Assembly (NCBI GenBank): GCA_963717515.1
Contig: OY970338.1
Coordinates: forward strand, 1,448,621-1,512,620
From: an uncultured Candidatus Woesearchaeota archaeon
GTDB taxonomy: Archaea > Nanobdellota > Nanobdellia > Woesearchaeales > DSVV01
Reading direction: 5' to 3'
Length of the DNA: 64,000 nt
Below are positions 20,664-51,663 of the stretch, piece after piece (position 1 is the first letter of the stretch; every line of letters begins with the position of its first letter). The notes under the pieces are model-generated. The model saw nothing but the letters and a program-made list of their open reading frames with translations. It had not been told where the DNA came from and did no database searches. A program made the translations under genes and the position numbers.

Positions 20664-21250
20664 TTTATGGAAAACTTTAAAAAGATTAAGTTAAACAATA
20701 ATATTCACAATTTTAATTAGGCAGGACATGATAAGTCCGAATAAGAAAAACCACGCGGATAAGGTGTCCAAACATATGCAATAACCTAAAATTTGCTTTT
20801 GACAACAATAGTCTACGACGGGAGATAAGATATCATCGGAAGGAGTCTGAAGTTCAGAGTACATGGTTCATAGTTAATCAAGACCTTAGGGCACAGAGCA
20901 CCCACAGGTTGTAATCATAGGAGAGCGGAATCATTTTTATTCAGAGCCTGCAGAATTCAGCCATGATAGCAATAACAGATTTCCAGCCGATAAATGGAGT
21001 GCAGAACTCAGGAAATCTTGCTATTCACGCTGCAGAAAGGAGAGGCCTAGCCTCTGCAACACTATGAAGAATATGGTTACAGACCCAGGCATCTTTGCAT
21101 CGCCGGATATGGCTGTGTCACTTATCGCTTGTTGGATAGGTCATGATGGCATGGAGTGAAAAGACCATTAGCAGCATCGGATTTAGAATCGTCTGGATGG
21201 CGTTAAGAGAACTTGAGGAAAAAGAAATTTAATATTGCTAATAATAATGG

Positions 21251-34910: not shown

Positions 34911-37481
34911 CTAATCACCTGCCTGCTCAATTATCTTTTTGACATTGAGCTTCCCGTTCTCGCTTTTCGAGACATCGATATTGTCCTCTCCATAGTTGTA
35001 CTGGATGATTTTCCCGCTAGCATCCCTCACAGTCATGTCGTATTCAACCCTGAGGTCCTGGGTCGCATTTGCAAGCCTCCTGTAGAGGTATCCGGATTTA
35101 GGTGTCCTAAGGGCTGTGTCCATCAGGCTGTCCCTCCCTGTCATGGAGCCGTAGAAGAACTCGGAAGGGCTCAGCCCTGACTTGAAGCTGTTCTGGATGA
35201 AGCCATGCGCTGCTGGGCCGAGGTCATCTTTTTTGAAGCATGAGAGCGCTCTCCTGTTGTACCCCTTCTCTATCCTGTGCCCTCTCATCGCCTGCTGTCC
35301 AACGCAGCCGCTCATCTGTGCAAGGTTGAGCGGATTTCCGCGCGACCCTGACAGGTTCATGACCATCATGGATGTGTCCTTGTTGTTGTACTGGGCGACA
35401 ATTGTTCCTGTATCGTTCCTTGCCTTGTTAAGTATCTCGAGTATCTTGAGCTCAAGCGTCTCCTTTATGCTCCTGCCCGGGAAGGCCTCGAGATCTCCCT
35501 TGTTGAATGAATCGATCAGCTCGTCGACCTTCTCCTGCGCCTTCACCATTATGCTGCTGATTGTCTCATTCGCCTCTTTTGGGAGGTCAACATCGGAAAT
35601 CGCTGTCGAGAAGCCTAGCTTCAGAAGTGTCTCAATGCCGAGCCTGAACATCCTGCCCAGGATGTTGATGGTCTGCTCCGGCCCGTATCTTTTGTGGAGG
35701 TTCCTAAGAAGAAGGCCTGAGCCTTCGCCGAGGTTCGCCTTGTCCATGGTGCCTGACAGCAGCTTGCCCTTCTTTATAAGGACTTCGTTTCCTGCCCTGT
35801 CAGACCCCCTGAAATCAAAGTCGGAGGGAAGTATGCAACTGAATATCTCTTTGCCTGTCACCTCTGCTTTTTTCGGTATGTCCTTGAAATCATTGATGCG
35901 GATCGACGAGAGCAGGTCGATAGCCTCATCTCTCGTCATCTTAAGGTCCTTTGTAAGCAGGTAATTACCTGATATTGCATCCTGTATGCAGCCGATGATG
36001 CTCAGTCCGTACCTCGGGCTGATCAGCTGTGTCCTGACTTCCATCAGTATCTCAGCTTCGACCCTGGCCTCTTCTGTCTGAGGTATATGGAGGTTCATCT
36101 CATCACCATCAAAATCTGCGTTGTACGGCGCGCATACTGCAGGGTTGAGCCTGAATGTCTTGTGAGGAAGGACCTTGACCCTGTGGCACATCATCGACAT
36201 CCTGTGAAGGGACGGCTGCCTGTTGAAGATGGATATGTCGCCGTTCATGATATGCCTCTCGACATAATAGCCCGGCTGGATCTCTTCAAGGAGCTGCTCC
36301 TTTGTCTCATCTGTTATCTTCTTCTTCTTGCCGTCAGGCCTGACGATGTAGTTAGCCCCTGGATATTCTGACGGGCCTTTCTCGACAAATTTCTTCAGAT
36401 ATTCAAGATTCCACTCTGTCACCCTTTCAGGAATGCTAAGCTTCATGGCTATCCTTCTCGGGACGCCTACCTCGTCGATATCAATCATGGGGTCAGGGCT
36501 GATGACTGTCCTTGATGAGAAATTTGTCCTCTTGCCGACGAGGTTATGCCTGATCCTCCCTTCCTTGCTCTTTATCCTTGCAGTGATGGTCTTGAGGGGC
36601 TGGCCTGACCTGTGCCTTGCAATAGGGAGCTGCGCGACCTCGTTGTCGAAAAATGTTGTGACATGATACTGCAGCAGGTCCCAAAGATCCTCTATGATTA
36701 TCTCAGGCGCGCCTGCATTGATGTTCTCGAAGAGCCTCTGATTTATCCTCACTATGTCGCCCAGCTTGTGGGTAAGGTCATCCTCGCTCCTTTCCCCGCT
36801 CTCAAGTGTGATGCTTGGCCTCATGGTCACAGGCGGGATAGGCATGACAGTGAGCACTGTCCATTCAGGCCTTATATGCTTCGGGTTGAGTCCGAAGATT
36901 TCCAGGTCCTCATCAGGGATCTTTTCAAGCCTTGTCCTCACCTCTATAGGCGACAACCTCTTCTCATTCTCAAGGAATGTCGTCGGCTTCTCGATAGTTA
37001 TCTTCTGCTGCCTTGCCTTGCAGTGGGGGCATTTGTTGATTGTCCTGAGGCCCGTGATGATGTCAGCTATCATCTTCCTTCTCCCGATAAGGCCTTCCTC
37101 ATTCTCGACCTCATTGAGCTTGTCGATGTTGCTGTCTATCTTATTATTAGGGATTAGTATCCTCCCACACTCCTTGCAGCTGCATTTCAGGAGATTCAGG
37201 ATAACTCCGATATATTTCAAGTGGACTATCGGCCTTGCAAGCTCTATATACCCGAAATGCCCGGGGCATTCCTTTAGCTTGGAGCCGCAGGTCTTGCACG
37301 TGAGGCCGGGATCGATCACTCCCAGGCGGATGTCCATAAGCCCTCCGTCCACAGGATATCCTTCCTTGTCATACAGCTCCGGCGTCACGACCTTTGCCGA
37401 TGCCATCTTCTTGATGAGCTTCGGGCTAAGCATCCCGAATTGTATCTCATTGACCTTTTTGTGTACCAGTTTTTCTTCCAT
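34911..37481 (-). CDS. rpoA1: RNA polymerase subunit A'
   Basis: [32 protein letters not shown]. Confidence 0.99.
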
Positions 37482-37506
37482 TTTTCTTGTTACAACATCC
37501 TTTTTT

Positions 37507-39318
37507 TCAGTATTTATTGGCCAGTATCAGCCTTGGATATATGCAAAGGCTCTTGAATTCGTCAAGGAGCAGCTTGAATGCATATGCTATCTCTATGAAA
37601 TTTATCTCGACATTGTCCCCGCATATGGGGCAGTACGACCTTTTCCTCATGCTGTCATGGATGGCTATGAGCCCGCAGTTCGAGCATACCGGGACGACAG
37701 TCTTGTCCGAATCGAACCTCTCCTTGAGGAGCAGGCTTGTGCCGTGGGCGACAAACGTGTCTTTCTCCATCTCCCCTAGCCTCAGCCCGCCTTCAAGAGC
37801 ACGACCCTCTGTAGGCTGCCTTGTTAGAAGCTGTATTGGCCCTCTTGCCCTTGAATGTATCTTGTTAGCGACCATGTGCTTGAGCTTGAGATAATACATG
37901 TCTCCGATGAATATCTTTGCATCGAACTGCTCGCCTGTCATGCCGTTGTACATGGTCTCTGTACCGTTCTCCCGGAAACCCATGGACCTGAGCTCTTTTC
38001 TGAGCTCCTCTTCCGGCTCTGAATCGAATGTAGTCCCATCTATTGACCTTCCTGAAAGTGCTCCGACCTTGCCTGCAATCAGCTCAATGAGATGGGAAAC
38101 TGTCATCCTTGACGGGATCCCATGCGGTGAGAATATCAGGTCGGGGATGATTCCGCTGGCTGAAAATGGCATATCCACTGCCGGGATTATTGCACCAATG
38201 ACACCTTTCTGTCCATGCCTGCTTGTGAACTTGTCACCTATCTCAGGAATCCTCTGGTCCCTTATCCTGACCTGGACCAGCCTGTTCCCTTCCTCATTCT
38301 CAGTGAGCAGGACAAAATCTATGATGCCCCTCTCTCCATGCTTTATGGAAGATGATGATTCCCTCCTCATGCTTGAGGCCAGGTTGTATTCATCAAGGCT
38401 TGAAAGGAATCTCGGCGGCGATGTCTTGCCGATGACCACGTCATCTTCCGCGACTTTCGCCTCTGGGACGATTATCCCGTCTTCTTCAAGCATCCTGTAG
38501 TCTTTTTCTGACTTGTATCCCTTGACATCCTTGTCAGGGACGCCTATCTCATCAATGAGCCCTCCGGAATACCTGAGCTCCTCTGCGATGATAGGCCTAA
38601 AATAAGTGGACCTTGCGACCCCTCTCTGTATAGATGACTTGTTGAGGATTATCGCATCCTCCATGTTGTAGCCCTTGTAACTCATTATTGCGACGACAAG
38701 ATTCTGCCCTGCCGGGTGCTTGTCATAGTCGGATATCTCATGCATTATTGTCTGGGTGATAGGCATCTGAGGCGTCTCGAGGATGTTGACGTCCATGTCC
38801 ATCCTCACAAGATAGTTTGCTGCATAGAACCCCAGGGCATGCTTCTGGTTCTTGCTTCCTGCATTGAGCCTCGTCGATAGCAGATGGTTGCCAAACGGCA
38901 CAAGCGATGTGCATAGGCCGAGGATGTCGAATGCGACTACCTCCATATGCGTGTGCTCAGGGGTCAGCTCCTCCTCGCTGAATGCGACAAGAGCATTCTC
39001 TTCTTCCATTGCATCGACATATTCGATAATGCCCTGCTTTACCAGGTCTGACCATGAAATCTCATTCTTCTCGAGCTGGCTCCTCTGCTTCTCTGTCAGC
39101 AGCGGCTTGCCGTCTTTCACGACTACAAGCGGCCTTCTCAGCCTGCCTTTCTGGCACTCGATCCTTATCTTCTTCTGCTCCTTGTCATAAAGCAGGTTGA
39201 TGTTCTGTGACAATGCCCCTTTCCTTCTCTCAAGGAATACGCTCTCCACGAAATTGTCAGGCTCATCCGTAGTCCCAATGAATTTCCCGTTCAGATACAC
39301 TTCATCCATATTTCTCAC
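37507..39318 (-). CDS. rpoB1: RNA polymerase subunit B'
   Basis: GYNMEDA, GDKFTSRHGQKG, RQPTEGR..GGLRLGEME. Confidence 0.99.
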   Translation of the reverse strand: MRNMDEVYLNGKFIGTTDEPDNFVESVFLERRKGALSQNINLLYDKEQKKIRIECQKGRLRRPLVVVKDGKPLLTEKQRSQLEKNEISWSDLVKQGIIEYVDAMEEENALVAFSEEELTPEHTHMEVVAFDILGLCTSLVPFGNHLLSTRLNAGSKNQKHALGFYAANYLVRMDMDVNILETPQMPITQTIMHEISDYDKHPAGQNLVVAIMSYKGYNMEDAIILNKSSIQRGVARSTYFRPIIAEELRYSGGLIDEIGVPDKDVKGYKSEKDYRMLEEDGIIVPEAKVAEDDVVIGKTSPPRFLSSLDEYNLASSMRRESSSSIKHGERGIIDFVLLTENEEGNRLVQVRIRDQRIPEIGDKFTSRHGQKGVIGAIIPAVDMPFSASGIIPDLIFSPHGIPSRMTVSHLIELIAGKVGALSGRSIDGTTFDSEPEEELRKELRSMGFRENGTETMYNGMTGEQFDAKIFIGDMYYLKLKHMVANKIHSRARGPIQLLTRQPTEGRALEGGLRLGEMEKDTFVAHGTSLLLKERFDSDKTVVPVCSNCGLIAIHDSMRKRSYCPICGDNVEINFIEIAYAFKLLLDEFKSLCIYPRLILANKY

Positions 39319-40802
39319 CTGACCCCCTTCAGCCCCATGTTTTTCAATACCTTGAGGATATCCTGCTCATCATCCTGCTTTGACACCTGTGAGAGCAGTG
39401 AAAGGTTCTTCCTAAGGCCTATGTTTGTCCCTTCCGGGGTCTCTATGGGGCAAAGCCTGCCCAGATGGGTGCTGTGAAGCTCCCTGGCATCGAAATTCTC
39501 CTGCGTCGCTGACAATGGTGAGATCACCCTCTGCAGGTGGCTCATGGTCTCGAGAAAATTGAGCCTCTGGATCCTCTGGCTGATTCCCTTCCTTCCCCCG
39601 ACCCAGTTGCCTGTAGCCATGGAGGTATACAGCCTCTGTGTGAGGAGCTTGTCCCTGATCACAACCTTTATCGACGGGAACTTGCCCCTCTTTACGATTC
39701 TCTGGAAATTATAGAGCATGTCACCTATCAGCACCTTCAGATTCACCCTGAAGAGGTCTGCAAGGAGGTCCCCGCTCATCTTCACCCGCTTGTTCATGTA
39801 ATGGTCCTTGTCATCAAGAGGGATCTCGCCATTTGAGACCTTGATGAATTTTTTCATAAGCTTGCATAGGTTGAAGGCCTTGAACAGCCTGTCCTCCTTC
39901 TCTGTTCCGAGGTGAGGCAGGAGATACTTGTCTACTATCTCGCCCATCCTCTCTATCCTTATGTCTTTTGACTGTGTTATGCCTATCCTTTTCGCGATAT
40001 TGTCCAGAGCGTCCTCTTCGTTCTTGAGGCTGTGGAATTCCAGCAGGTTGATGTATATGTCGTCATTCTGGGCATTGTCAGACACCTGCTTCATGATATC
40101 CTCGTCCTTGACAAGACCCAGCGACTTGAGGATTATCACCAGAGGTATCTTCTTGACCCTGGTGAAAGTTATGTAGAATATCCCGTCCTTGTGCTTCTCC
40201 ATCACATGAGGGATCTTGAATGAGCCCCTCTCAGAGAATATCTTGCCCTGGAACCTGCTCGGGCCTATCTTGTTCTCCTCGACCAGGAACTGGTTTGCAG
40301 CCAGGTCCTCGATGTTGATGAGCACCCTCTCGGTGCCGTTGATTATGAAGTATCCTCCAGGGTCGTATGGATCCTCGTTGTTTGCCACCAGCTCTTCCCT
40401 GCTCAGCTTGTTGAGATGGCAGAATTTTGATTTGAGCATTATTGGAATGGCTCCAACCTGGGTCACAAAGGATTCCCGCTGAATGCCGTTGATGTGGGCA
40501 CTGACCTCGATATAGCATGGTGCTGAATAGCTTATCTTCCTGAGCCTTGCCTCTATGGGGAATATCGGCCTCTTCGATCCGTCAGCCTCTGTAATCTCCG
40601 GTTTGGTTACCCATATCTTGTCAAGCCTTATCTTGAACTCATCGATATTATGAGGGATTATCGTAGGCTCGATTATCTTGTTCTCATTGATTATGACCTG
40701 GAGCTCATGCTCAATGAAATAGTTGAACGATTCTATATCAGATTCAACGAGCGAATGCTCGTTGAAATACTTCTTTATCAGGGTTTTTGAGGTTTTATTC
40801 AT
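39315..40802 (-). CDS. rpoB2: RNA polymerase subunit B''
   Basis: DPGGYFIINGTERV, DKDHYMNKR, CPIETPEGTNIGL. Confidence 0.99.
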   Translation of the reverse strand: MNKTSKTLIKKYFNEHSLVESDIESFNYFIEHELQVIINENKIIEPTIIPHNIDEFKIRLDKIWVTKPEITEADGSKRPIFPIEARLRKISYSAPCYIEVSAHINGIQRESFVTQVGAIPIMLKSKFCHLNKLSREELVANNEDPYDPGGYFIINGTERVLINIEDLAANQFLVEENKIGPSRFQGKIFSERGSFKIPHVMEKHKDGIFYITFTRVKKIPLVIILKSLGLVKDEDIMKQVSDNAQNDDIYINLLEFHSLKNEEDALDNIAKRIGITQSKDIRIERMGEIVDKYLLPHLGTEKEDRLFKAFNLCKLMKKFIKVSNGEIPLDDKDHYMNKRVKMSGDLLADLFRVNLKVLIGDMLYNFQRIVKRGKFPSIKVVIRDKLLTQRLYTSMATGNWVGGRKGISQRIQRLNFLETMSHLQRVISPLSATQENFDARELHSTHLGRLCPIETPEGTNIGLRKNLSLLSQVSKQDDEQDILKVLKNMGLKGVR

Positions 40803-41049
40803 TTACGACACACCTGTAATACACTGCCTCTCCTGCTGTCGGGCTGGGACGCACTATCTTTATCACATCCCCTACAGTGACATTGAGGGGCTGGATGATA
40901 GGGTCCTTTGCCGAGATCTTGGGCAGCTCTTTTATTGTTATGTTGAGCTTCTTGAGAAGGTCGTTCTTGTCTTTCTGGGTGAGTTTTGCGTGCTTCGGAA
41001 CCAGCACGTGAGTCCTAACATCGAAACTGACTTTTTTGTTTTTTGCCAT
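40795..41049 (-). CDS. rpoH: RNA polymerase subunit H
   Basis: HVLVPKH, LPKISAKDP, RPSPTAG..YYR. Confidence 0.99.
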   Translation of the reverse strand: MAKNKKVSFDVRTHVLVPKHAKLTQKDKNDLLKKLNITIKELPKISAKDPIIQPLNVTVGDVIKIVRPSPTAGEAVYYRCVVNE

Positions 41050-41164
41050 CTGGAATCTCTCCTTATATATTTACATGGGTGCAAAAATCTTATTGACACC
41101 CCCCTGCCCCGCTGCCGGAGCACACCCGATAACCGGCCCCTTATCCTGACGACCTGGTTAGTTA

Positions 41165-41252
41165 TGGGCCCGACGAGGTTCGAACTCGCGACCACTCGAT
41201 CCCTTCCGGAAAGTTAAAAGTCGAGTGCTCTACCAGGCTGAGCTACGGGCCC
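41165..41252 (-). tRNA. tRNA-Lys(TTT) with ~14-nt intron at 37/38 (about 41201-41214)
   Basis: GGGCCCG acceptor; TAGCTCAGCCTGGTAGAGC; CTCGA-CTTTTA[intron]A-TCGAG; GTTCGAAC. Confidence 0.92.
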
Positions 41253-41310
41253 TTAAAGATTTGGGACCGTATCCCAGAGTCTCCAGGTTCCTTGTCCCAA
41301 ATCTTCAATA

Positions 41311-41431
41311 CGCCCTGGCCGGGACTTTCTAACGACCTCCTTTTTCCATGAAAAAGGCAAAATATCGTTTTTCGAACCCGGGTCGAAGCCTCGACAGGGC
41401 TTCATGATAGGCCGGACTACACTACCAGGGC
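41311..41431 (-). tRNA. tRNA-Asp(GTC) with ~46-nt intron in the T-loop (about 41325-41370)
   Basis: GCCCTGG acceptor; AAGCC-CTGTCGA-GGCTT; CCGGG TTCGAA[hairpin insert]T CCCGG. Confidence 0.9.
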
Positions 41432-41678
41432 TTTTAGGCTAAACTATGCATAAAATCCTCCTATAATTAAAATAAGCACAAATTGGCCTTGTCTTTTGAT
41501 TTTGCGCTCTAGAAGGATTTTTCATAGTTGACTTCTAACTTTTTTTTCTCTTTATAAACATTACTGTTTTTTGATATTATCGCTATATAATATGCATCAT
41601 AATACAAGCCCTGGACTGGCCTGCATTCATCGCGGAAATCCAAAATACATATATATTAATTAATTTTTGCATTAATGA

Positions 41679-42590
41679 ATGGAAAAAAACAGGATATTCT
41701 TTCATAAGCCCAACCTTGAGCTGTTCCACAGCATGGGCCTCTCGAGCGTTGACATGCATTACCATACCCGTTTCTCTGACAGCTATACGCGTATATCGAC
41801 TGTGATGAGAAAAGCCAGGAAAAAGAAGATGGGCGTGGCTATAACAGACCATAATGCGATCGAGGGCTGTGTCAAGGCATCCGCAAACAACATGGGCATC
41901 ATGATCATACCCGGCATAGAAATCAGCTCCAGTGACGGCCCTCATATACTTCTGTATTTCTATACCATAGATGAGCTGGGAGAGTTCTACAAGAAGCATA
42001 TAAAGCCGAACAAGCAGGGCAACCCGTACATGGCCGTCAAATTGAGTGTTGAAGAAATATTGAACAGGACGCGGGATTTCAGCTGCATGAGAGTCGCTGC
42101 CCATCCTTACGGGTTCGCAATAGCAAACCAAGGCCTGTCAAAAAGCGTGAAAAAGCATTATATAGATGAGAGCGTGTTCGATGACATCGATTCCATGGAA
42201 GTCATATGCGGAGGGATGACCAGGCGGCTCAACAGGAAGGCAGAAAAGAGGGCTGGAGAGCTTGAAAAAGGGTTTACAGGAGGATCTGACGGGCATACAA
42301 TATTTGAGCTCGGGAAGGTCGTGACCAGCAGCCATGCGCATGACGTTGAGAGCTTCCTCAAGAACATCAGCATGAAGAAAAATTTCGTCATCGGGACAGA
42401 GATTAGGACATTGTCCAAACTCATACACGGGACCAATATGATGTCGAGACACATGAGATATGCTGTCCCTACCCTCAGGCTCCAGTATCATATGAACAAG
42501 GGCAGGGTGAAAAACGTGCCTGCAAAGCTCATGAGGGGCTCAACTGCGCTCAGGGAAAGATTCAGGAATATCACGAACGGCAAAGATTAA
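41679..42590 (+). CDS. PHP-domain metal-dependent phosphoesterase
   Basis: DMHYHTRFSD, AITDHN, IPGIEIS, AAHPY, GGSDGH. Confidence 0.93.
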   Translation: MEKNRIFFHKPNLELFHSMGLSSVDMHYHTRFSDSYTRISTVMRKARKKKMGVAITDHNAIEGCVKASANNMGIMIIPGIEISSSDGPHILLYFYTIDELGEFYKKHIKPNKQGNPYMAVKLSVEEILNRTRDFSCMRVAAHPYGFAIANQGLSKSVKKHYIDESVFDDIDSMEVICGGMTRRLNRKAEKRAGELEKGFTGGSDGHTIFELGKVVTSSHAHDVESFLKNISMKKNFVIGTEIRTLSKLIHGTNMMSRHMRYAVPTLRLQYHMNKGRVKNVPAKLMRGSTALRERFRNITNGKD

Positions 42591-42650
42591 GTTTTTTATA
42601 TTGGTATTAGAATCTGGTTCTTGTTGCAGGCAAAACATCATATAACTGAC

Positions 42651-42814
42651 GCCCCTGTAGTCTAGCCTGGCGACCTTTTGTGTTCACCTGCGGTGAAACA
42701 AAGGCTCGAGCAAAATCCTGGGGTTGCCCTCATTCTGCGGGCAAGCCACTTTGTGCTCAGATAGGACGCACCGTTGCGGACGGCGTAACCCGGGTTCGAA
42801 TCCCGGCAGGGGCA
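42651..42814 (+). tRNA. tRNA-Arg(GCG) with ~90-nt D-loop insertion (about 42671-42760)
   Basis: GCCCCTG TA GTCTAGCCTGG[insert]ATAGGAC; loop TTGCGGA; CCGGGTTCGAATCCCGG CAGGGGCA. Confidence 0.88.
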
Positions 42815-43155
42815 TTATTTCTTCGAAATGATATCAATCCCTGCGGAATTCGAACATCTGCGGAAAACTTCGTTTTCCTTGACCTTTCGTTCGTGTTCCA
42901 CGAACTTCAAGGAATCCCGGCAGGGGCATTATTTCTTCGAAATGATATCAATCCCTGCGGAATTCGAACATCTGCGGAAAACTTCGTTTTCCTTGACCTT
43001 TCGTTCGTGTTCCACGAACTTCAAGGAATCCCGGCAGGGGCATTATTTCTTCGAAATGATATCAATCCCTGCGGAATTCGAACATCTGCGTAAAACTTCG
43101 TTTTCCTTGACCTTTCGTTCGTGTTCCACGAACTTCAAGGAATCCCGGCAGGGGC
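42798..43155 (+). repeat. Three tandem 114-bp direct repeats giving four copies of the tRNA-Arg 3' end
   Basis: GAATCCCGGCAGGGGC at 42798, 42912, 43026, 43140; units identical except G>T at 43091. Confidence 0.97.
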
Positions 43156-43158
43156 GTT

Positions 43159-44001
43159 TTATTTTTCAGAATCCATTCTTTTTTTCTCTTTTTGTTTAGG
43201 TAAATAATTATCTCTCGAAATGATTGATTTACCGATATTGCTTTCAATATCAACTCTTGTTCTTTTTGCGATGTTTCCACCTTTGTTTGCAGATTCCCTG
43301 CATTCCTCAAATCCCTGCGAGTCTTTTTCTCTTGTGATGTCGGTTGTTGCCTTTTCTCCAACCATTGTAAGAATAAGCTCCCAGTCAGTCATGTGATCTC
43401 GAAGATTCTGATTCTTTTTTTTAAGTTGCTTGAAATCTTTGTATTCACCCACTGTTTTTCCAAAAGTTGCTTTTGATATTTCATTTGTAAGAATTGAAAA
43501 TTCTTTTTGTGTTTTAATTTCTCTGTCATTCCATTCATCTGTTAATTCCTGTCTTACAGAAATTCCTCTTAATCGTTTGTCAATCCATTCTTTTGGATAC
43601 CCTTTGAGTTCATAATATTCTTTTATTCTATCCTGACCCAATTCTGGATTTTCAATCTCTTCAATTCTTTCATAACCAACTTGAGCCAGCCATTGTTTGA
43701 AAGGCTCGGCTCTAGGAGATGGAATCGATTGAATTAACCTGAATATCTCTTTGGTATTGCCTATGTCTGTAAGCCTCAATTTACCATCGACTGCTGGCAT
43801 TTTCAAAGCGTTACAATTTGTAACGGTTTCATTTCCTTCATCTTTAAGTCTCTTTTTAAGGACTCTCCAATACACTTGAGGATTGTCACTTTCTGTTAAA
43901 ACAGCTATAATGTCAACTATAGAAAAATACCATTTTTCATTATACCAGATACGTCGGATTTTTTTATCCTGAAAAACTACCAGTTTATTCTTATCTTCCA
44001 T
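43159..44001 (-). CDS. Bro-N domain protein (phage antirepressor-like)
   Basis: IRRIWYNEKWYFSIVDII, DGKLRLTD, RLIQSIPSPRAEPFKQWLA, NLRDHMT; visibly more AT-rich than neighbours. Confidence 0.9.
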   Translation of the reverse strand: MEDKNKLVVFQDKKIRRIWYNEKWYFSIVDIIAVLTESDNPQVYWRVLKKRLKDEGNETVTNCNALKMPAVDGKLRLTDIGNTKEIFRLIQSIPSPRAEPFKQWLAQVGYERIEEIENPELGQDRIKEYYELKGYPKEWIDKRLRGISVRQELTDEWNDREIKTQKEFSILTNEISKATFGKTVGEYKDFKQLKKKNQNLRDHMTDWELILTMVGEKATTDITREKDSQGFEECRESANKGGNIAKRTRVDIESNIGKSIISRDNYLPKQKEKKRMDSEK

Positions 44002-44183
44002 TGTTTAAATGGTAATCTTGCTATATTTATATATTTTAAGCTAGCTTGTCCAGTGGCAAGGGGAAAAATGAGATTAGAGTAATAGAATGGTATATATTGA
44101 AATCCCACCAAAATAGACAAAAAGGCACTGTGCCCGGCAGGGGCATATTATTTTCCAGGAAGAATGATATCGATATGCACAAG

Positions 44184-44699
44184 CTACCTGCCAAGCCTTC
44201 TGCCATCCAGGCTCCGTGGCCGGTATCCTATGAAGATCCTGTCCTTGTAATTGCCATCGTTTCTCTTGAGGACCTTATGTCGGCTGTTGACTATCTGGAC
44301 AAGCATGGATGTGCCGATAGGGATGTCATAAAGAGCGTTCGCCTCATCTATCGATGATAAGCCGGCATATTTCCTGAAATGCCCAGATTGATAAGGAGTG
44401 TATCTTGGCTCGAATCCGATCACTTTTATATGGTTGATGACCCCTGACCATTTCCTCTCTTCAGATTCATACCATTGCAGAAGTTCATACCCGTCTCCTT
44501 CATAATCCAGAGCAGGCTTCGGCTCTTTCCTCATGACGATATTTCCAAGATGCCTTACGCTCATTAGGCCGCTGGAGCCTGAGACATCTGCCAGCAGGAT
44601 CCTGTTCGATCTCTCGATGTCTATCCAGTCAGGATATTCCCTGACAAGGCTAGCATATATCAAATCAAATGGGATGTAATCCTTCTCTTCCTCTGACAT
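44184..44699 (-). CDS. Hypothetical protein
   Basis: 171-aa ORF with upstream TTTATAA-type tract; no motif recognised. Confidence 0.55.
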   Translation of the reverse strand: MSEEEKDYIPFDLIYASLVREYPDWIDIERSNRILLADVSGSSGLMSVRHLGNIVMRKEPKPALDYEGDGYELLQWYESEERKWSGVINHIKVIGFEPRYTPYQSGHFRKYAGLSSIDEANALYDIPIGTSMLVQIVNSRHKVLKRNDGNYKDRIFIGYRPRSLDGRRLGR

Positions 44700-44773
44700 G
44701 TCCGCAGGAAAGCGAGAACATTATTTATAATTAATGCAAAATACGAACTTAGGTCTGCTCTAGGATAATAGAT

Positions 44774-46213
44774 TCAATTGTTTATTCCCGGCAGCCAGAA
44801 TGAGAACGTGCTTCCCTTACTCGAGGACTCAAGCCTGATGTACCCCTTATGGGCTTCGATTATCTCCCTTGATATGGCCAGCCCGAGCCCGGTGCCTAGT
44901 CTCCTGTACTTCGTGTCGAGCTGGCTGAATTTTACAAAGAGCTTGTCCATGTCTTCTTTCTTGATGCCGATGCCGGTATCCTTCACCTGGACAAGAACCC
45001 CTCCTTCCTTTTCTGATGCTGATATCCTGACACTGCCTTCTTCAGTGAACTTGAATGCATTTATCATCAGGTTGCAGAGCACCTGGATGATCCTTCCGCT
45101 GTCAACCCGCACCCTGGGCAGTCCGGCACTGACGCTCTTTGTGAATTTCAGGTTCCCTGCCTCGGTCTTCATCTGCAGGTAGGATGTTTCAAGGACCTTC
45201 TCCATGTCTGTCTCCTTCATCTCAAACCTCATCTTCCTGCTCTCGAGCTTAACGATGTCAAGGAAATCATCCACGAGGTGCTTCATCCGCCAGGACTCCT
45301 CGCTTATGACTTCAATATGCTTCCTCTCGGTCGCTCCCAGCTTACCCTTCTTAAGAAGCATCTTTGAATATCCGACGATCGAGGTCAGTGGGTTCCTCAA
45401 CTCATGTGCTGTTATGTTCATGAACTCGACCTTCGTCTCATTCGCCTCTTCAAGCTTCTTCTCCTTCATCTTGATGTCCCTGAACATTGCTGTGTAGGGC
45501 TCCCTCAGGTTCGTGACTATGACTGCCTGGTATATCATTGCAAATGACGTGAGCTTGAAGAAATGCCCTATCAGGTTGAAAAGTCCGAATGGGTCTGTAT
45601 ACAAAGTGAATGACAGCTCACCCAATACTGTAAAGACGATCGATGCTGCGAGTAGCCTGTAGATGTAGCGGGAGAACCTGAGCCTGTTCTTCCAAAGCAG
45701 ATACAGGGCGATTAGGAGGATTGCACATATGATGTACTCGGTTGCAATCTTGAACACAGTCAGGCCGTTGTCGAATGCTGTCGGGAATATGCCTATCGTG
45801 ATAGTGGTCACAATAATTGCAAAGACAGCTGTGAAGCCTACCCAGACAAGCCTGAAATCCGGCCTGCGTTTCAGCAGGAGAGGTGCCACCATGAAGGACA
45901 CTGCCTCGACAAACCTCGCAGATATCCAGTACTGGGTCGCCATGTTCGCGCCATGACCTATTACATTGATCCCTTCATAGGAAAGGGTGTGCAATGTATC
46001 GATGAACGCAATGAAGAGATATGCGATGCCGAGGAAGAGGAAATAGTCATTCCTGTTTATCCTCCTGGTGTTCCATGCGACCATGAAGATCCCAGCTGCT
46101 ATGAATATGCTCGCGAATTCAGCGATGCTGTGGAAAAGGAGGTAATTGAATCTGCTTATTATGAAAAGGACTGCGAAAAAGAAAAGCCATATCAGGATAT
46201 CCCGGGGCTTCAT
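44774..46213 (-). CDS. MASE3-domain sensor histidine kinase
   Basis: HSIAEFASI, DTLHTLSY (MASE3); HELRNPL, NLMINAFKFT, DTGIGI, GTGLGLAI; start MKPRD preferred over TTG 46303. Confidence 0.92.
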   Translation of the reverse strand: MKPRDILIWLFFFAVLFIISRFNYLLFHSIAEFASIFIAAGIFMVAWNTRRINRNDYFLFLGIAYLFIAFIDTLHTLSYEGINVIGHGANMATQYWISARFVEAVSFMVAPLLLKRRPDFRLVWVGFTAVFAIIVTTITIGIFPTAFDNGLTVFKIATEYIICAILLIALYLLWKNRLRFSRYIYRLLAASIVFTVLGELSFTLYTDPFGLFNLIGHFFKLTSFAMIYQAVIVTNLREPYTAMFRDIKMKEKKLEEANETKVEFMNITAHELRNPLTSIVGYSKMLLKKGKLGATERKHIEVISEESWRMKHLVDDFLDIVKLESRKMRFEMKETDMEKVLETSYLQMKTEAGNLKFTKSVSAGLPRVRVDSGRIIQVLCNLMINAFKFTEEGSVRISASEKEGGVLVQVKDTGIGIKKEDMDKLFVKFSQLDTKYRRLGTGLGLAISREIIEAHKGYIRLESSSKGSTFSFWLPGINN

Positions 46214-46315
46214 GAATGCGGGGTATTCATAGAGTTTATTTAAAGTTATTCCGATAAAAGCAAAAAATATTAATACTCGATAGATGTATTGCCTGTCCCT
46301 CAAAGAGGTGAGAAC

Positions 46316-46540
46316 ATGGCTTCGGTGTTTTATTTCAGCAATGGCGCGACAGCAGACAGTATCAGCTCACTTGCCAAGATCCTTGAGCAGGTTGACGACG
46401 ACACATTCAGCTATCACTGCAACAATGAGAAGAATGATTTCTACAACTGGATTTCTGACGGGCTCGGGGAAAAGGCGCTTGCATCAAAGATCAAGAGGAT
46501 AAAGACCCGGAAGGGGCTCATCAAGAAACTGATGGCATGA
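46316..46540 (+). CDS. DUF5752-like small protein
   Basis: FSYHCNNEKNDFYNWISDGLGEKALA; SD GAGGTG. Confidence 0.75.
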   Translation: MASVFYFSNGATADSISSLAKILEQVDDDTFSYHCNNEKNDFYNWISDGLGEKALASKIKRIKTRKGLIKKLMA

Positions 46541-46573
46541 GCATTCATCCCAGGTAGGTGCGGGTGATCCCTC

Positions 46574-47500
46574 TCATTTGATTTTTCTTTTGATAAATAA
46601 TCCTGCCAGCGAATCCCTTGCAGATTCAAGATTATTTTTCATCCTTTTTATGGCCAATTTTGGTGTGCCTGCCTCTGACAGGTTCTTCTTCAGCCTGTTG
46701 TAGTCCCTGTTCATCCGGTTGATCTGCCTCTCGACCATATGCAGCCTTTTCTCAATCGGCTTGTTGAGATTCCTTGAGAAATCTGCAAACTCATACTCGA
46801 CTGAACCATCCCGTATTTCCCCCTTCGTCATCCTGAAATATTCTGCCTTCAGATACTTGCCGGCAAGGAGCAGCCTCCCCTCTTTTCTCAGCCTTCTCAC
46901 GCTGACCTTAATATAAACCGAATTCAGGAGCCTTAATGGCCTGAGTTTTGAGGCTCTCCTGACCAGGTCATGGTCCTCAGCAAGAGTAATCGATTCATCA
47001 AAACCCCCAATGCGGAAAAAAAGCCTCCTGGAGATGAAGATACAGAATCCCGGGGCATGGGCCGAGGTGAACTGGCCGAGTTTGATATATGAATATGCCA
47101 GCTCATGCATGACCTTGTCCACATAGAGGCTGGACAGAGGCCTGAACTCGCATGATGCAAGGTCAAGGAACCTCTCCTGCATCTCACTGTGTGCTTTTTC
47201 AAGGAAACCTCTCGGAAGCTTTACATCTGCATCAAAGAAGAACAGAAGTTCACCCCTGGCAGCTTCTGCTCCCCTGTTCCTGCCAGGTCCGGGCATCCCT
47301 CCCTTCACGACCCTTGCCCTGAATCTTTTGGCAATCTTTTTTGTCTTGTCTGTAGAACCTGCGTCAGCGATGATTATCTCGTAATCCGTGAAATCCTGCT
47401 TCCTTATGCTCTCAAGGAGCTTCGGGAGGTACTTCTCCTCATTCAGCGTCGGGATGATTAAGCTAATCTTGGGCATTGGAATATCAATATGGCCAGTCAA
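46574..47500 (-). CDS. GT2 glycosyltransferase with C-terminal helical extension
   Basis: SLIIPTLNEE, DAGSTD, GRNRGA, FFDAD, EDHDL, VSVRR. Confidence 0.93.
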   Translation of the reverse strand: MTGHIDIPMPKISLIIPTLNEEKYLPKLLESIRKQDFTDYEIIIADAGSTDKTKKIAKRFRARVVKGGMPGPGRNRGAEAARGELLFFFDADVKLPRGFLEKAHSEMQERFLDLASCEFRPLSSLYVDKVMHELAYSYIKLGQFTSAHAPGFCIFISRRLFFRIGGFDESITLAEDHDLVRRASKLRPLRLLNSVYIKVSVRRLRKEGRLLLAGKYLKAEYFRMTKGEIRDGSVEYEFADFSRNLNKPIEKRLHMVERQINRMNRDYNRLKKNLSEAGTPKLAIKRMKNNLESARDSLAGLFIKRKIK

Positions 47501-47573
47501 TATTTAAAATTTATCCATTTTATGCCTGCATTTTCAATTAATTTTAAATACCCATGACATATAACCTTCGATA

Positions 47574-48012
47574 ATGAAGAAAAAAATCCTAGTAGTGGAC
47601 GATGAATACACTATCAGGGAGCTTGTCGACCTGACGCTCGCGCCGGAATATGACGTCATCAAGGCAGAGAACGGCAAAGAGGGGCTTGAGATGATAAAAC
47701 AGAACCCTGATCTCGTGATACTTGATATAATGATGCCCCAGATGGACGGCTGATGAGGTGTGCGAGAAGCTCAAGACAGATGAGAAGACCAGGCATATAC
47801 CTGTGATAATGCTCACTGCAAAGCACTCCATGGAAGACCTAAAGAAGGCTGTCAAAGTAGATGTCGACGAGTACATAACAAAGCCATTCGAGCCTGAGTT
47901 CCTCAAGAAGAGGGTCGATGCATACCTGGGCGATGAGAAGAAAGACATCAAGAGCAGGCTGTTCCAGTACGACAAGTCCCTGCATTATGTGAAGGAGAGG
48001 GAGGAAGACTAG
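47574..48012 (+). pseudogene. CheY-like response regulator with a 1-nt insertion at about 47752
   Basis: MKKKILVVDDE...DLVILDIMMPQMDG then TGA; the next frame continues EVCEKLK...IPVIMLTA...YITKPF (GGC T[G]AT GAG). Confidence 0.85.
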
Positions 48013-48659
48013 AGCACCTTGCTCCCGTTGATATAGAGCCCGAAGCTGCATCCCAGGAATTCTGCCGCCCGCCGTGCCATGAGCATCCTGTCCATGAATA
48101 TCTCGAAATATTCCATGACCGGGCTTATGCCTGTATCGATCGTTAGCTCAAGCGCGATTGCATTCTCATCAGGCTTCACATTGAGAAAAGACTTCTCCAC
48201 AGCCCAGTTGACCCTGTCGTGGATATCCATCTTTATGTCTACTGTCTTTCTCACACGGCTCTTGTGGACGTCGGTCTTGTCTGCAATTATCAGGGCTGCT
48301 GCAATGAAGCTTATCGGGTGGCCCTCGTCTTCATGATGGTTTCCGATCGCCCCGACGATGTCCATTATGTCATTGATGTCAAATCCCATCTCATTGAGGA
48401 GATCGTAGACGATGACAGCGCCTGTCTGAGCGTGATTCACCCTGTTTATCGCATTGCCTATGTCATGGAGATAGCCTGCAATCTCTGCAAGCTTCTGCTC
48501 CCTCTCTGAATAATCAAGCCTTTTCAGGATATTATGCGCGATATTTGAGACGAGCTCAGCATGCCTCCTCCCATGCTCAGTGAACCCGAGATTGCCTATG
48601 AACTCGTCAGTCTTTGCAAGCATGACCTCGACACGTGGGTTCTCTTTGATGTGCTGCAT
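48009..48659 (-). CDS. HD-domain phosphohydrolase
   Basis: TEHGRRHA, YLHDIGN, IGNHHE, IADKTD. Confidence 0.92.
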   Translation of the reverse strand: MQHIKENPRVEVMLAKTDEFIGNLGFTEHGRRHAELVSNIAHNILKRLDYSEREQKLAEIAGYLHDIGNAINRVNHAQTGAVIVYDLLNEMGFDINDIMDIVGAIGNHHEDEGHPISFIAAALIIADKTDVHKSRVRKTVDIKMDIHDRVNWAVEKSFLNVKPDENAIALELTIDTGISPVMEYFEIFMDRMLMARRAAEFLGCSFGLYINGSKVL

Positions 48660-48751
48660 ATTGAAAGTCCTATATCTCCTTGATTTTAATATTTTCCGCT
48701 TGAGAGTCAGGATGTGTCTTGCCAGCCGGCCCAGAAATAATAAGCAATCAT

Positions 48752-49510
48752 CTAATAATATGGTACAATCTTGCTAATGTCCCTGCCGGGAAGGTTTCTT
48801 GCCTTCATGCATTGGAGTTCATGCGTGCATATATTGGAGCAGTAATCATTCATGGATGTCATGACCTGCCATGAAAATGCATTGCTCTTCAAGAACAATG
48901 GCATCGCCCCGAATTCATCCTTGGTATGGGGGGGCTTCTGGTTGATATTCTCATTTATGAATTTAAGAGTTTGGTTTTCACCCAGGCTTTGGATGACATA
49001 TCCAAGCATCTCCTTGTAATGACTGGGATCACAGAATCCCTGATTGACCGGGTTTTTCTGGTTCAGTGCAATTGTCTTCCCATAACAGACACTCTCATTA
49101 TAGATGAATCTCTTCACTGCTTCATTATATCCTATATCACCATTATTCTCAATGCTCTTCTGGAACTTGAAGTCCTGCATCGGCTTCTTCAGACCGAGAA
49201 TATTGAGGGCGACAGACATGATGATGGATTCATACCCTGCAAGTTCATGCGGGATATTTTTCCTGATCCCTTCCATCTGCCGGGAATCAACCAAAGTCTT
49301 ATATCTGTCATTAAGGGCATCAGGGTCATATTTACTGATTTTAACTGCCGGGGTGATCTCAACCAGAGATGGTTCCTCCCGAGATATGTAAATGGGTGCA
49401 TTGGGTCCATTCCTGAGAAAAAACCTTTCAAGAGCTACAGGATGCTGACCAATCAATATGCTTTCCAGACTTCGCTCTTGCGCTTCCTGTGCCAAAGAAA
49501 CATTATCCAT
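48752..49510 (-). CDS. Hypothetical protein
   Basis: 252-aa ORF with AT-rich upstream region; no motif recognised. Confidence 0.55.
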   Translation of the reverse strand: MDNVSLAQEAQERSLESILIGQHPVALERFFLRNGPNAPIYISREEPSLVEITPAVKISKYDPDALNDRYKTLVDSRQMEGIRKNIPHELAGYESIIMSVALNILGLKKPMQDFKFQKSIENNGDIGYNEAVKRFIYNESVCYGKTIALNQKNPVNQGFCDPSHYKEMLGYVIQSLGENQTLKFINENINQKPPHTKDEFGAMPLFLKSNAFSWQVMTSMNDYCSNICTHELQCMKARNLPGRDISKIVPYY

Positions 49511-49644
49511 TTTTTATACTATCTGATATGATATTGTAATATATTGTATTAAGTATTTATAAACTTTTCTATCTTTTAGTATATAATAGGCCTAATTTCC
49601 ACATTAAACCACCCAAACCCTGGTCAAATAATTAGAAACAACAG

Positions 49645-51663
49645 CTATTTTGCAGACACGCTGTAATGTACAAGGAAACATTCCCTCTGGTCTTTCACTG
49701 TCGTGAATTTCGAGACAAGGGCCTTGACAGAATCCATCCTCTGCTTCTTCTGGAGGATCTTGCCTGCGTCTGTCCTGTGGAACTCAATCTTCGCATAGAA
49801 TGCATGTCTCGCGATGTCAGTCAGGATATACTTGTCAGAGATCTCATAATTCCCATACTTGTTGTCGAGATAACCTTTTGCTGCGAGGGACTTGATTACA
49901 CTCTCGGTATCCAGCCCTCTTCCTGTCTTCTGGATGAAAGACTCAATCGTGAATCTCTTCTGCCTGAACGCGTTCTCGAGGACCTTGAGCTCCTCACTAG
50001 TGAGCTTGTCAAGCTCTGGCAGGAATGCTGATTTAATCTTCGCCTGTTCGATGTCGGTCACGACACTTCCGTTCACCATCTCTACCAGGAGGTTGAACTC
50101 CCTGCCCTTGTTCTCGCAGAGAAACATCACGCATGGCACAAGGACAGTCTCGATAGCCACCTCTTTTTCGCTCATCAGCCTGATGTCCTTGGGTGTGAGC
50201 TTGGGCTGGATTACGGGCATGAGCTTCTTGTCCTTGAAATCCTTGAGCTCATCAAAGAACTTGTCCTCGCCCTCCTGCATGCCGAGGATGTCCACTGCCT
50301 CTCCTCCATGCCTGGTCTTCCTGGGCCTGAAATTGACAAGCAGAGGCATGTCGACTATGCCTGTTATCAGGGCAGTGCCCACAGGCAGGTTCTTTATCTC
50401 GTTCTCAGTCTCGTAAGTGATACCCTCTACAGAATTCGTTATGGCTTTGAGGTCATTGGGGTTTGTAATCTTGAGAATGACCTGGGTGGTGCACTGGGAA
50501 AGAACTGTCTTCTGCACAATAGCCGGCCTCTGGGAGACCACGCAGAGCCCGAGGCCGAATTTCCTGCCCTCAGATGCGATGGTCTTGATAATCTTTGATG
50601 ACTTTGCCTCGCTGAAGCCCTTCTCCGGGACGAAGTTGTGCGCTTCTTCAATCACAAGGAAGAAGGGAGGGATCTTCTCGAGCTTCCTCTCGCTGAATAG
50701 GTCCTTTAGGAGTTTATATATCATTATCTCCTGCACCTGAGGGTCTATGCCTTTCAGGTTTAGGATGGAGCATCTCCCAGACTGGACAAGCTCGTTGAAG
50801 GATGTGGGGTTTCCTGAGAAGAGCTTGAGCCCTTTGAGGTATTCGACCATGTTAATCAGGTTCCATTTCTGGTTGTTCTCGCTTGACTGCAATGCAAGTA
50901 TCAGGTTGTCAAGGTTGAGCCGGTCGAGCTCCTTGATGGTGCTGTAGAGTATCCCCATCTGGCTGCTCGTGAGCCTTGCAGGCAGCAGGTTCACAATCTC
51001 ATCAGGGGTCAGGTTCTCATCAAGCTTGAGGGGCTTGAAACCCGGGTCAAGCTGGGTATCCCCATATACCGAGACTTTCCTTGCATATGACTTTGGCTTT
51101 ACCTTGAACCTGGACATCGCTGCCTTGTCTTTCTTGTTGTCATTCTCCTCCTTGAGGGTGATATATTCGCCGTGCGGGTCGATGATGAGCAGCGGCACAT
51201 TCTTGTCCATTATCTCCTCGAGAAGAACTCCGACTGAATAGGACTTGCCTGAGCCGGATTTCGCAAGGATTGCGACATGCCTTGTCAGGAGCTTGTTGAG
51301 GTCGAGGTATACAGGTATGCTCGTGCCTTCAAGGAGCCCTACGTAAGCCCCTTTCTGGATATCGTCGAGCATGACAACTGCTTTTATGAAATCCTCTTCA
51401 GCCTTAAGGACCTCTGTTCCGACATCAAATGGGCTCCTTACCTGCCTTATCCTTCCGTTCTTGTCCCTGTAGCCGATGATTATGCAGCGGGCCTTCACCT
51501 CTTCTGTGGTCTTCTCCAGCTCGATGACCTGGCAGAGGACATACTCATATTCCCTGTGATATACCTGGCAGTAGTCGAATTTCTCTGTCTTGTTCTCCAC
51601 GAGAAAATCAAACCTGGTTGTCGTAACCCTTCCTGTTATCTTTCCGAGTATGAAGCTTATCAC
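49645..51663 (-). CDS. HerA/DUF87-family ATPase with N-terminal HAS barrel and C-terminal extension
   Basis: HVAILAKSGSGKS, IIDPHGEY, EEAHNFVP, EGRKFG, SQRPA, SQC. Confidence 0.92.
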   Translation of the reverse strand: MISFILGKITGRVTTTRFDFLVENKTEKFDYCQVYHREYEYVLCQVIELEKTTEEVKARCIIIGYRDKNGRIRQVRSPFDVGTEVLKAEEDFIKAVVMLDDIQKGAYVGLLEGTSIPVYLDLNKLLTRHVAILAKSGSGKSYSVGVLLEEIMDKNVPLLIIDPHGEYITLKEENDNKKDKAAMSRFKVKPKSYARKVSVYGDTQLDPGFKPLKLDENLTPDEIVNLLPARLTSSQMGILYSTIKELDRLNLDNLILALQSSENNQKWNLINMVEYLKGLKLFSGNPTSFNELVQSGRCSILNLKGIDPQVQEIMIYKLLKDLFSERKLEKIPPFFLVIEEAHNFVPEKGFSEAKSSKIIKTIASEGRKFGLGLCVVSQRPAIVQKTVLSQCTTQVILKITNPNDLKAITNSVEGITYETENEIKNLPVGTALITGIVDMPLLVNFRPRKTRHGGEAVDILGMQEGEDKFFDELKDFKDKKLMPVIQPKLTPKDIRLMSEKEVAIETVLVPCVMFLCENKGREFNLLVEMVNGSVVTDIEQAKIKSAFLPELDKLTSEELKVLENAFRQKRFTIESFIQKTGRGLDTESVIKSLAAKGYLDNKYGNYEISDKYILTDIARHAFYAKIEFHRTDAGKILQKKQRMDSVKALVSKFTTVKDQRECFLVHYSVSAK

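Follow-up and report, generated by a model that had tools for sequence, protein, structure and literature searches.

What are the three near-identical blocks of DNA that follow a tRNA gene in an uncultured Candidatus Woesearchaeota archaeon, each of which ends as the gene itself does? They lie in a 64,000-nt stretch of contig OY970338.1 (assembly GCA_963717515.1, positions 1,448,621 to 1,512,620, forward strand; here called the window, with positions counted from its first letter), as three 114-bp units arranged head-to-tail at 42815-43156, immediately 3' of an intron-bearing tRNA-Arg(GCG) gene. Our analysis places them in a widespread and, it seems, undescribed family of small gene-less hairpin elements behind tRNA genes in Woesearchaeal archaea. 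Tentatively, and with a confidence that stops a little short of even, we read the units as a mobile DNA module, without genes and not autonomous, that works through its hairpins in the single-stranded state and is amplified locally by unequal recombination.

Tandem Repeats Finder reported positions 42798-43155 as a tandem repeat with a period of 114, 3.1 copies, 99% matches and 0 indels, and a repeat search of the window returned three 140-nt copies at 100/100/96%. Together with the sequence itself, these results confirmed the three tandem 114-bp units and the anatomy that the original prediction had given them. Unit 1 (42815..42928, + strand), delimited from the sequence, RNA and DNA folds and a covariance model, begins with a 22-nt AT-rich spacer that is itself a small hairpin, running to 42832 when counted from the discriminator A of the gene at 42814. 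The spacer is followed by the arm TCCCTGCGGAATTCGAAC; the 5' arm stretch reads ATCCCTGCGGAATTCGAA in each unit and occupies 42838-42851 in unit 1, as a degenerate inverted copy of tRNA positions ~53-70. Next come the hairpin GGAAAAC-TTC-GTTTTCC (42862-42878), which with the short helix P1b (42857-42858/42881-42882) makes up the first stem-loop (SL1), then CTTGACCTTTC, then the hairpin GTTCGTG-TTC-CACGAAC (42889-42905), which with helix P3 (42883-42886/42909-42912) makes up the second (SL2). After the second hairpin stand TTCAAGG and GAATCCCGGCAGGGGC(A), the exact copy of the upstream gene's end, so that the unit carries a direct copy of the tRNA-Arg 3' end at its end and a degenerate inverted copy inside. 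The 3' arm of unit 1 (42912-42928) copies the tRNA 3' end from GAATCCC on, and TCCCGGCAGGGGC lies 3' of the two hairpins in each unit. The 12-mer CCCGGCAGGGGC has 5 exact copies, and 7 with at most one mismatch, against an expected 0.13, a level reached in 0 of 100 shuffles.

Unit 2 (42929..43042, +) is identical to unit 1, as the repeat searches and covariance models show. For unit 3 (43043..43156, +) a single SNP had been predicted; there are in fact two differences, 43091 G>T, which disrupts the second pair of hairpin 1, and 43156 A>G at the final, discriminator base. These differences also bear on whether one unit was wrongly expanded to three during assembly. Public reads are of little help here, as no public run contains more than 6% of the sampled words of the source genome, and four public runs that we aligned reached no further than the conserved part of the tRNA and a piece of another organism's related unit. 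Against an artefact, unit 3 departs from units 1 and 2 at two sites, and arrays of 2-3 units with periods of 88-117 occur at 12 of 93 sites in independent assemblies as well as at three other loci of the same genome, which makes this explanation barely credible. The array was also correctly predicted not to be a CRISPR: the stretches of 97 nt that separate the 17-nt tRNA-end repeats differ from one another by one base at most, and no Cas family was matched in Pfam by the 14 ORFs at 34911-51663, the rest of the genome not having been searched for cas genes. The units hold no ORF in the ORF list.

As a single strand, a unit is predicted to fold stably. Its + strand as RNA reaches -34.2 kcal/mol (z -2.96), with a stable RNA fold on either strand, and as DNA it reaches -16.6 kcal/mol (z -2.43) in the same shape as the family model described below. 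The units had been expected to fold like an acceptor/T-arm minihelix, and this was partly right: the 5' arm does pair with the 3' tRNA-end copy in the predicted fold, but the pairing is one register off a true minihelix. In the family at large, pairing in the outer stem drops to only about half in its acceptor part, where non-wobble mismatches are frequent, and this decay means that a true minihelix is not maintained. A permissive Rfam search of 42600-43250 (E up to 10) found no tRNA-like match inside 42815-43156, the 3' part of the Arg gene being the sole tRNA match in the region (22.3 bits), and gave no significant family for the unit. Weak rows for an "RSV primer-binding site" (E 3-5) in the same search were dismissed as noise. 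No C/D-box, H/ACA or K-turn boxes were seen in a check made by eye only.

The unit is not confined to the tRNA-Arg locus. BLAST of one unit against the 1.84-Mb single-contig genome of the same archaeon placed its central 80 nt at three other sites, each just 3' of a tRNA, and nhmmer added a fourth further tRNA locus with two weak tandem units. We built one covariance model from 11 units (R1) and a second from 54 hits (R2); unit 1 matched them at 42835-42928 with 86.7 and 77.3 bits, respectively, and R2 gave 11 hits in total on this genome. R1 matched 11 of 28 genomes of the Genome Taxonomy Database (GTDB) family, which by genus, with the genome itself excluded, came to 3/3, 5/5, 1/4 and 1/1, and to 0/14 genomes in the other 11 genera. 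R2 found matches in 26 of the 151 genomes that sampled the order, including 22 of the 115 rated high-quality, and in 25 of 151 genomes of a phylum-wide sample, where every matched genome belonged to this same order. Over 86 fetched loci R2 returned 107 hits, 101 of them distinct. A 16-mer scan of genome contigs proved unspecific: among the at least 80 loci it listed, only one (L134) held real units, with two hits.

What ties these hits together is that the ends of a unit follow the tRNA it lies behind. The last 14 nt of the hit are repeated upstream within 500 nt, with at most one mismatch, in 75 of the 107 hits (within 40 nt in 68), and the tail-repeating hits represent 57 distinct tRNA tails. 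Behind tRNA genes, the outer stem has as its 3' strand an exact direct copy of the tRNA that extends from the T-loop (AAT) to the discriminator, and the direct repeat usually goes on beyond the gene to take in the first 6-35 nt of the spacer. The 5' strand repeats the T-loop, the T-stem and part of the acceptor in inverted form; ATT[TC]GAA, the reverse complement of the T-loop, occurs in the 5' arm of 64/107 hits. By eye, the arm also follows the host T-stem, as with CCAGATTTGAAC behind ..GTTCAAATCTGG.. (a CTGGG/CCCAG T-stem), TCGGGATTTGAAC behind ..CCCGA.. and GAGGATTTGAAC behind ..CCTC.., and in some units it keeps to the acceptor strand over 16-18 nt. The expectation that the 5' arm would track the adjacent tRNA 3' end was thus borne out at homologous units in other loci and genomes. 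A downstream inverted copy native to tRNA genes was ruled out, none being present at tRNAs without units: in the source genome it occurs only at four tRNAs with a same-strand unit (scores 9.5-13), and the remaining 35 ARAGORN tRNA calls score at most 8. The idea that both ends of the core mimic the T-loop was rejected, as the right-end TTCAA holds in one genus only.

Thirty-two hits lacked the tail repeat. Inspection of 17 found seven to be tRNA-adjacent with a decayed 3' arm, one to lie in a T-loop insert and nine to be free-standing with unrelated outer-stem sequence. The other 15 comprised five antisense hits, one composite, one behind a 470-nt insert, three intron candidates and five with no tRNA in view.

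The conserved part of the family consists of the two stem-loops, enclosed by an outer stem of local sequence. Over 101 distinct rows 86.3% of cells were paired, against 62.4% after shuffling and 31-51% with sliding partners, in alignments that were fitted to the model and so favour it, and all 32 modelled pairs showed changes on both sides. Pairing was highest in hairpin 1 (97.9% of cells), P1b (94.7%), hairpin 2 (94.0%) and P3 (91.0%) and fell to 73.0% in the outer stem, where 12/12 pairs covaried. P3 was absent from the first model, on whose alignment it was nonetheless 90.3% paired with 4/4 pairs covarying. The outer and inner helices therefore form the kind of imperfect inverted repeat, with structure kept over sequence, that characterizes folded attachment sites. 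A central mismatch like that of CTX attP was looked for and is not present; the mismatch rate simply climbs outward along the stem.

Such a fold could serve RNA instead of DNA, and a processed small RNA, which the original prediction had raised as its second possibility, is an alternative that we regard as possible, if doubtful. The unit would be transcribed as a tRNA 3' trailer or as part of an intron, fold to a three-way junction and be released, perhaps in circular form, by the splicing endonuclease, tRNase Z and RNase P; the helix for processing would come from the tRNA-end copy paired with its complement, and the DNA repeats would be a mere route of gene duplication. Compensatory changes in all helices across an order would be expected of such an RNA, the genome encodes a splicing endonuclease (at 1075943-1076203 of its contig), and free-standing and intronic copies keep pairing outer stems despite their unrelated sequence. 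Several features that suit co-transcription also weigh against a module acting as DNA. Among classified tRNA-flank hits 72 are sense and only 6 antisense, and the core is sense in both confirmed tRNA introns and two further candidates described below. Some spacers are just 0-3 nt long, and a separate promoter would not fit into those of 0-8 nt; a run of five or more T occurs in only 13/68 spacers, against 20/56 after the last unit. The same tRNA loci keep units in congeneric species, which could mean function.

On the other side, the base pairs themselves favour DNA. Structured RNAs usually carry several times more G-U pairs than were found here: of 1754 inner-helix cells 1643 were Watson-Crick, 21 G-U, 41 A-C and 49 other, so that G-U pairs are rare (1.2%), fewer than A-C, and without enrichment on the sense strand, an argument weakened by its dependence on model-fitted alignments. 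A small RNA also fits poorly with an outer stem whose acceptor-like end is not kept, with the lack of an Rfam family match, with the patchy distribution among genomes, and with the occurrence of the core in both orientations relative to the tRNA. The direct repeats, which extend beyond the tRNA into its flank, likewise speak for DNA.

Comparison between congeners suggested that units change in number and that cores move. The Arg locus holds three units in this genome and one in the congener G001; the Gly(CCC) locus differs between congeners by one versus two units and a Gly(TCC)-like gene by two versus one. The unit behind the Gly(TCC)-like tRNA of this genome is closer to a G001 unit behind a Ser/Leu-type tRNA (94% identity) than to its counterpart at the orthologous G003 locus (77%). 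Judged by sequence identity, core similarity does not follow the host tRNA. A shared core also bears on the idea that local replication accidents, in which the polymerase switched template at the palindromic T-arm, created a direct-inverted-direct triplication independently at each locus and without any mobile unit. The template-switch mechanism is known from the complex-rearrangement literature, and the direct/inverted/direct order is what two switches are expected to give. A homologous ~60-nt core common to more than 50 loci and many genomes contradicts such accidents as a stand-alone account, which we therefore hold to be very improbable; the one role left to them would be that of the step by which a mobile element inserts.

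Several loci depart from the simple unit. In G001 (L011, contig C4, ~1135-1589) the array reads tRNA-A-B-A-B, with two unit types alternating; units of type B have an inverted core, and their left arm repeats the variable-loop/T-stem segment of the tRNA in direct orientation. Composite units (L016 1428-1571, L057 754-883, L294 1501-1630) take the form of two cores without arms between them, a 45-nt nested hairpin in the loop of hairpin 1, or a doubled second stem-loop. Genome G167 carries two full copies of a 223-nt composite holding the core (L279 C3, L299 C18), each set between perfect inverted repeats of local sequence that are 16-17 nt long and differ from one copy to the other, two copies being too few for a rule; parts of this composite recur alone at six other places. 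A 300-nt intergenic stretch of another genome (L290, G174:C6, ~1430-1700) consists almost entirely of similar hairpins nested in one another (AGAAAT..ATTTCT, GAAAAC..GTTTTC). Further arrangements, which we count in favour of mobility, were seen in the source genome (coordinates on its contig, C1): at least three tandem 98-nt units at ~20870-21164, 3' of tRNA-Pro(cgg) (c21165-21240), with a different two-hairpin core, each ending in a tRNA-Pro 3'-end copy and all missed by the covariance models; an unrelated 85-nt two-hairpin insert at 568240-568452, between tRNA-Gly(CCC) and its unit; and a 50-nt unit behind tRNA-Ala at ~1744920-1744983, these last two also flanked by tRNA-end repeats.

The core also occurs inside tRNA genes. 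The units of the window sit 3' of a complete gene, whereas four other loci carry the core in the middle of a T-arm or anticodon arm, with one half of the arm on each side. ARAGORN made no call at two of these until the insert was removed in silico, when a 139-140-nt deletion yielded tRNA-Glu (L285) and a 149-151-nt deletion tRNA-Asp (L313). The other two (L286, L288), with several inserts each, are intron candidates, so that two of the four tried were confirmed by removal. In at least two genomes the same core thus lies in predicted T-loop introns of real tRNA genes, and a remark in the original prediction, that the insert occupies the position of a nearby tRNA-Asp intron, had pointed the right way. 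In G105 related cores with the same outer stem occur in two T-loop inserts and in one free-standing copy between two tRNA genes. By eye, the intron junctions, where a bulge-helix-bulge motif would be expected, allow a possible 4-bp helix, UGAA/UUCA, by the outer stem, which competes with the covarying P3.

A more specific form of mobility would account for these positions: a hairpin-guided insertion on single-stranded DNA in DPANN archaea, for which the near-palindromic T-arm of any tRNA is a landing site and which copies the tRNA tail to both sides of the core, landing behind the gene or in its T-loop or anticodon loop. We think this version unlikely as it stands. More generally, a core found behind tRNA genes, in T-loop introns and free-standing offers a testable route for tRNA intron gain and for the shedding of tRNA fragments.

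The tRNA-Arg gene itself (42651..42814, +) was delimited by ARAGORN with introns, Rfam alignment and congener comparison. It comprises exon 1 (42651-42670), a 90-nt intron in the D-loop region (42671-42760) and exon 2 (42761-42814), which ends in the discriminator A at 42814. The intron is placed there because the orthologous congener gene (G001, L020) has a short insert at the same place and a relative's contig lacks 42671-42760 altogether. The gene is missed by default ARAGORN and by Rfam at the gathering score; with introns allowed, ARAGORN gives its ends exactly under a wrong label, and the Rfam alignment over 42745-42814, with an anticodon loop of UUGCGGA, identifies it as Arg(GCG). Tools that mis-call or miss such loci imply that tRNA annotation in these genomes should expect units; ARAGORN made 39 tRNA calls in this genome with introns allowed, most of them intron-bearing. 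Beside this locus, tRNA-Asp(GTC) at 41311-41431 (-) has a ~45-nt insert in its T-loop, read from the sequence, and next to it 41165-41252 (-) scores 60 bits with the Rfam tRNA model and is called Lys(ttt) with an intron by ARAGORN. Further upstream, RNA polymerase subunit B is split in two genes (39315-40802 and 37507-39318, -) that adjoin subunit A' (34911-37481).

Downstream of unit 3 follows a low-GC island of ~1 kb (43157..44132, GC 0.36 by composition), whose sole ORF (43159-44001, -, 280 aa) encodes a Bro-N protein (Pfam, E=1e-10). The island is closed by a fifth tRNA 3'-end copy, CCCGGCAGGGGCA (44133-44144, +), and its bounding by tRNA-Arg 3'-end copies marks it as a second, separate insertion into this tRNA end, unrelated to the units and absent from the original prediction. 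At the right end of the island stand small hairpins that do not match the unit core. Directly 3' of the fifth copy follows a diverged copy of the unit spacer (..ATTATTTTCCAGGAAGAATGATATCGAT). A repeat family groups this region with 43144-43169 at 88%, and from this arrangement of repeats 44133..44170 (+) is the outer boundary of all insertions at tRNA-Arg.

This neighbour raises the question of whether the units are remnants of larger integrative elements, such as viruses or plasmids with tyrosine integrases, the core being an attachment-site-proximal end left by internal deletion and repeated by later integrations. The arrangement in the window, in which the tRNA gene is regenerated and its 3' part reappears, displaced, at the far end, follows the logic of tRNA-borne islands set out in the accessible part of the Islander paper (PMC4383910), and the same arrangement holds for the 75 tail-repeating hits of the family. 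The 1-kb Bro-N island uses the same tRNA end, and in G003 a 470-nt insert that includes an 80-aa ORF has at its far end a unit whose left arm is a direct, not inverted, T-stem copy. Against this, 68 of 107 units begin no more than 40 nt from the tRNA, have their boundaries in common and carry no cargo, no integrase was found in 310 kb of flanks, and the window's own island lacks such a core at its end. One core serves 57 tRNA tails, which a site-specific integrase family would hardly share, and it is also found in introns and intergenic palindromes. An origin as remnants is accordingly quite unlikely.

The original prediction had proposed a non-autonomous element that restores its attachment site on integration. 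Direct tRNA-end repeats, copy-number differences between congeners, the patchy distribution and the moving cores all fit that proposal. What could move such a module was looked for without success. No recombinase or transposase is linked to the units, and neither a Y1 transposase nor TnpB nor a reverse transcriptase is present in the closed genome. Matches to PF00589 lie at 212, 525, 835 and 1281 kb, away from all arrays, one tyrosine-recombinase ORF, at 835698-836162, being 289 aa long. Relatives of three of these ORFs were absent from 310 kb around 114 unit loci, the 1281-kb match, which contains stop codons, having been left out of that search. We found no circular form and no empty-site polymorphism within a species, and viral contigs gave no unit copy: three scans yielded two exact matches, both within ORFs and neither an R2 hit. 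An origin of IS200/IS605 type was rejected for want of a partner in a closed genome without Y1 transposase and TnpB. A retro-element route was set aside in the same way, given the lack of a reverse transcriptase, and since the 5' arm rarely reaches the last bases of the tRNA it could not serve as a primer-binding site.

For a mobile module, we infer a DNA-level mechanism with a single-stranded intermediate and an enzyme supplied from elsewhere. The order of tRNA end, spacer, inverted copy, core and tRNA end is what one crossover would leave if the gene recombined with a circular molecule or a folded single strand that carries those parts. In such a scheme the hairpins would be recognition structures in single-stranded DNA for a trans-acting recombinase, and the folded arms would mimic the duplex target. 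Once a first unit was in place, the duplicated tRNA ends could drive unequal recombination or slippage, giving the three copies seen here, and gene conversion through conserved arm-proximal sequences might carry cores between tRNA loci. Crossovers on the other side of the core could put it inside the T-loop as an intron.

The consequences differ with the reading. If the units are mobile, arms rebuilt from each new target would point to a new insertion chemistry in archaea with very small genomes, and to our knowledge no smaller tRNA-targeting element has been described. If insertion is hairpin-guided, landings inside genes would be a direct source of non-canonical tRNA introns. If the units are small RNAs, they would form a new, order-wide RNA family that borrows tRNA ends.

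Our literature search, in which supplementary files were not covered, found no description of such units, and they are not mentioned in the accessible part of a study of Nanobdellota genomes (10.64898/2026.05.13.725050). Known systems nevertheless share parts of their design. With tRNA-gene islands and integrative elements the units share an intact tRNA, a displaced 3' copy at the far end and head-to-tail pile-up; they differ in being 85-117 bp long with neither a gene nor an integrase nearby, and in having a conserved folded core, an extra inverted copy of the target and one core type behind 57 tails. An element that encodes its own integrase is a poor match, as the units have no ORF and the PF00589 matches are distant from the arrays.

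Small RNAs are also known to be made from tRNA-linked transcripts, as with mascRNA, tRNA-snoRNA and tRNA-C/D sRNA dicistrons. The units resemble these in standing directly behind a tRNA in sense orientation with a tRNA-like 3' end, but they copy the neighbouring tRNA exactly, including its non-tRNA flank, and are tandem and patchy, with helices that do without wobble pairs. Miniature inverted-repeat transposable elements (MITEs), repetitive extragenic palindromic (REP) elements and palindromic elements derived from IS200/IS605 are small gene-less, hairpin-rich repeats. Like them, the units are small, gene-less, rich in hairpins, present in many copies and sometimes nested in palindromes; unlike them, they have terminal repeats copied from the local target, so that the arms change with the host tRNA, and a strong tie to tRNA 3' ends, and the closed host genome, in which other transposase families were not searched for, has no Y1 transposase or TnpB.

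Work on Thermoproteales has reportedly described non-canonical tRNA introns and their "transposition" between tRNA genes. In the accessible part of Sugahara 2012 (PMC3293823), intron gain and tRNA fragments alike were proposed to arise when a mobile element integrates, and a study of Asgard tRNA introns calls the route of intron arrival open in the part available (10.64898/2026.10.13.758758). The units share with archaeal non-canonical introns a core in T-loop inserts in at least two genomes, related copies in several tRNAs of one genome and tRNA fragments beside intact genes. They differ in that the cores of the window, and most others, lie behind the gene between two copies of the tRNA tail.

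Integron attC sites and CTX phage attP(+) are folded single-strand recombination sites made of imperfect inverted repeats. In both and in the units, structure is kept over sequence, an inverted arm, a loop and a direct arm meet at one junction, and tandem arrays occur without a recombinase of their own, a likeness by analogy that may serve as a lead and not as a test. What sets the units apart is that they are archaeal, that their loop is conserved and folded, and that their target would be the T-arm and 3' end of a tRNA in place of attI or dif.

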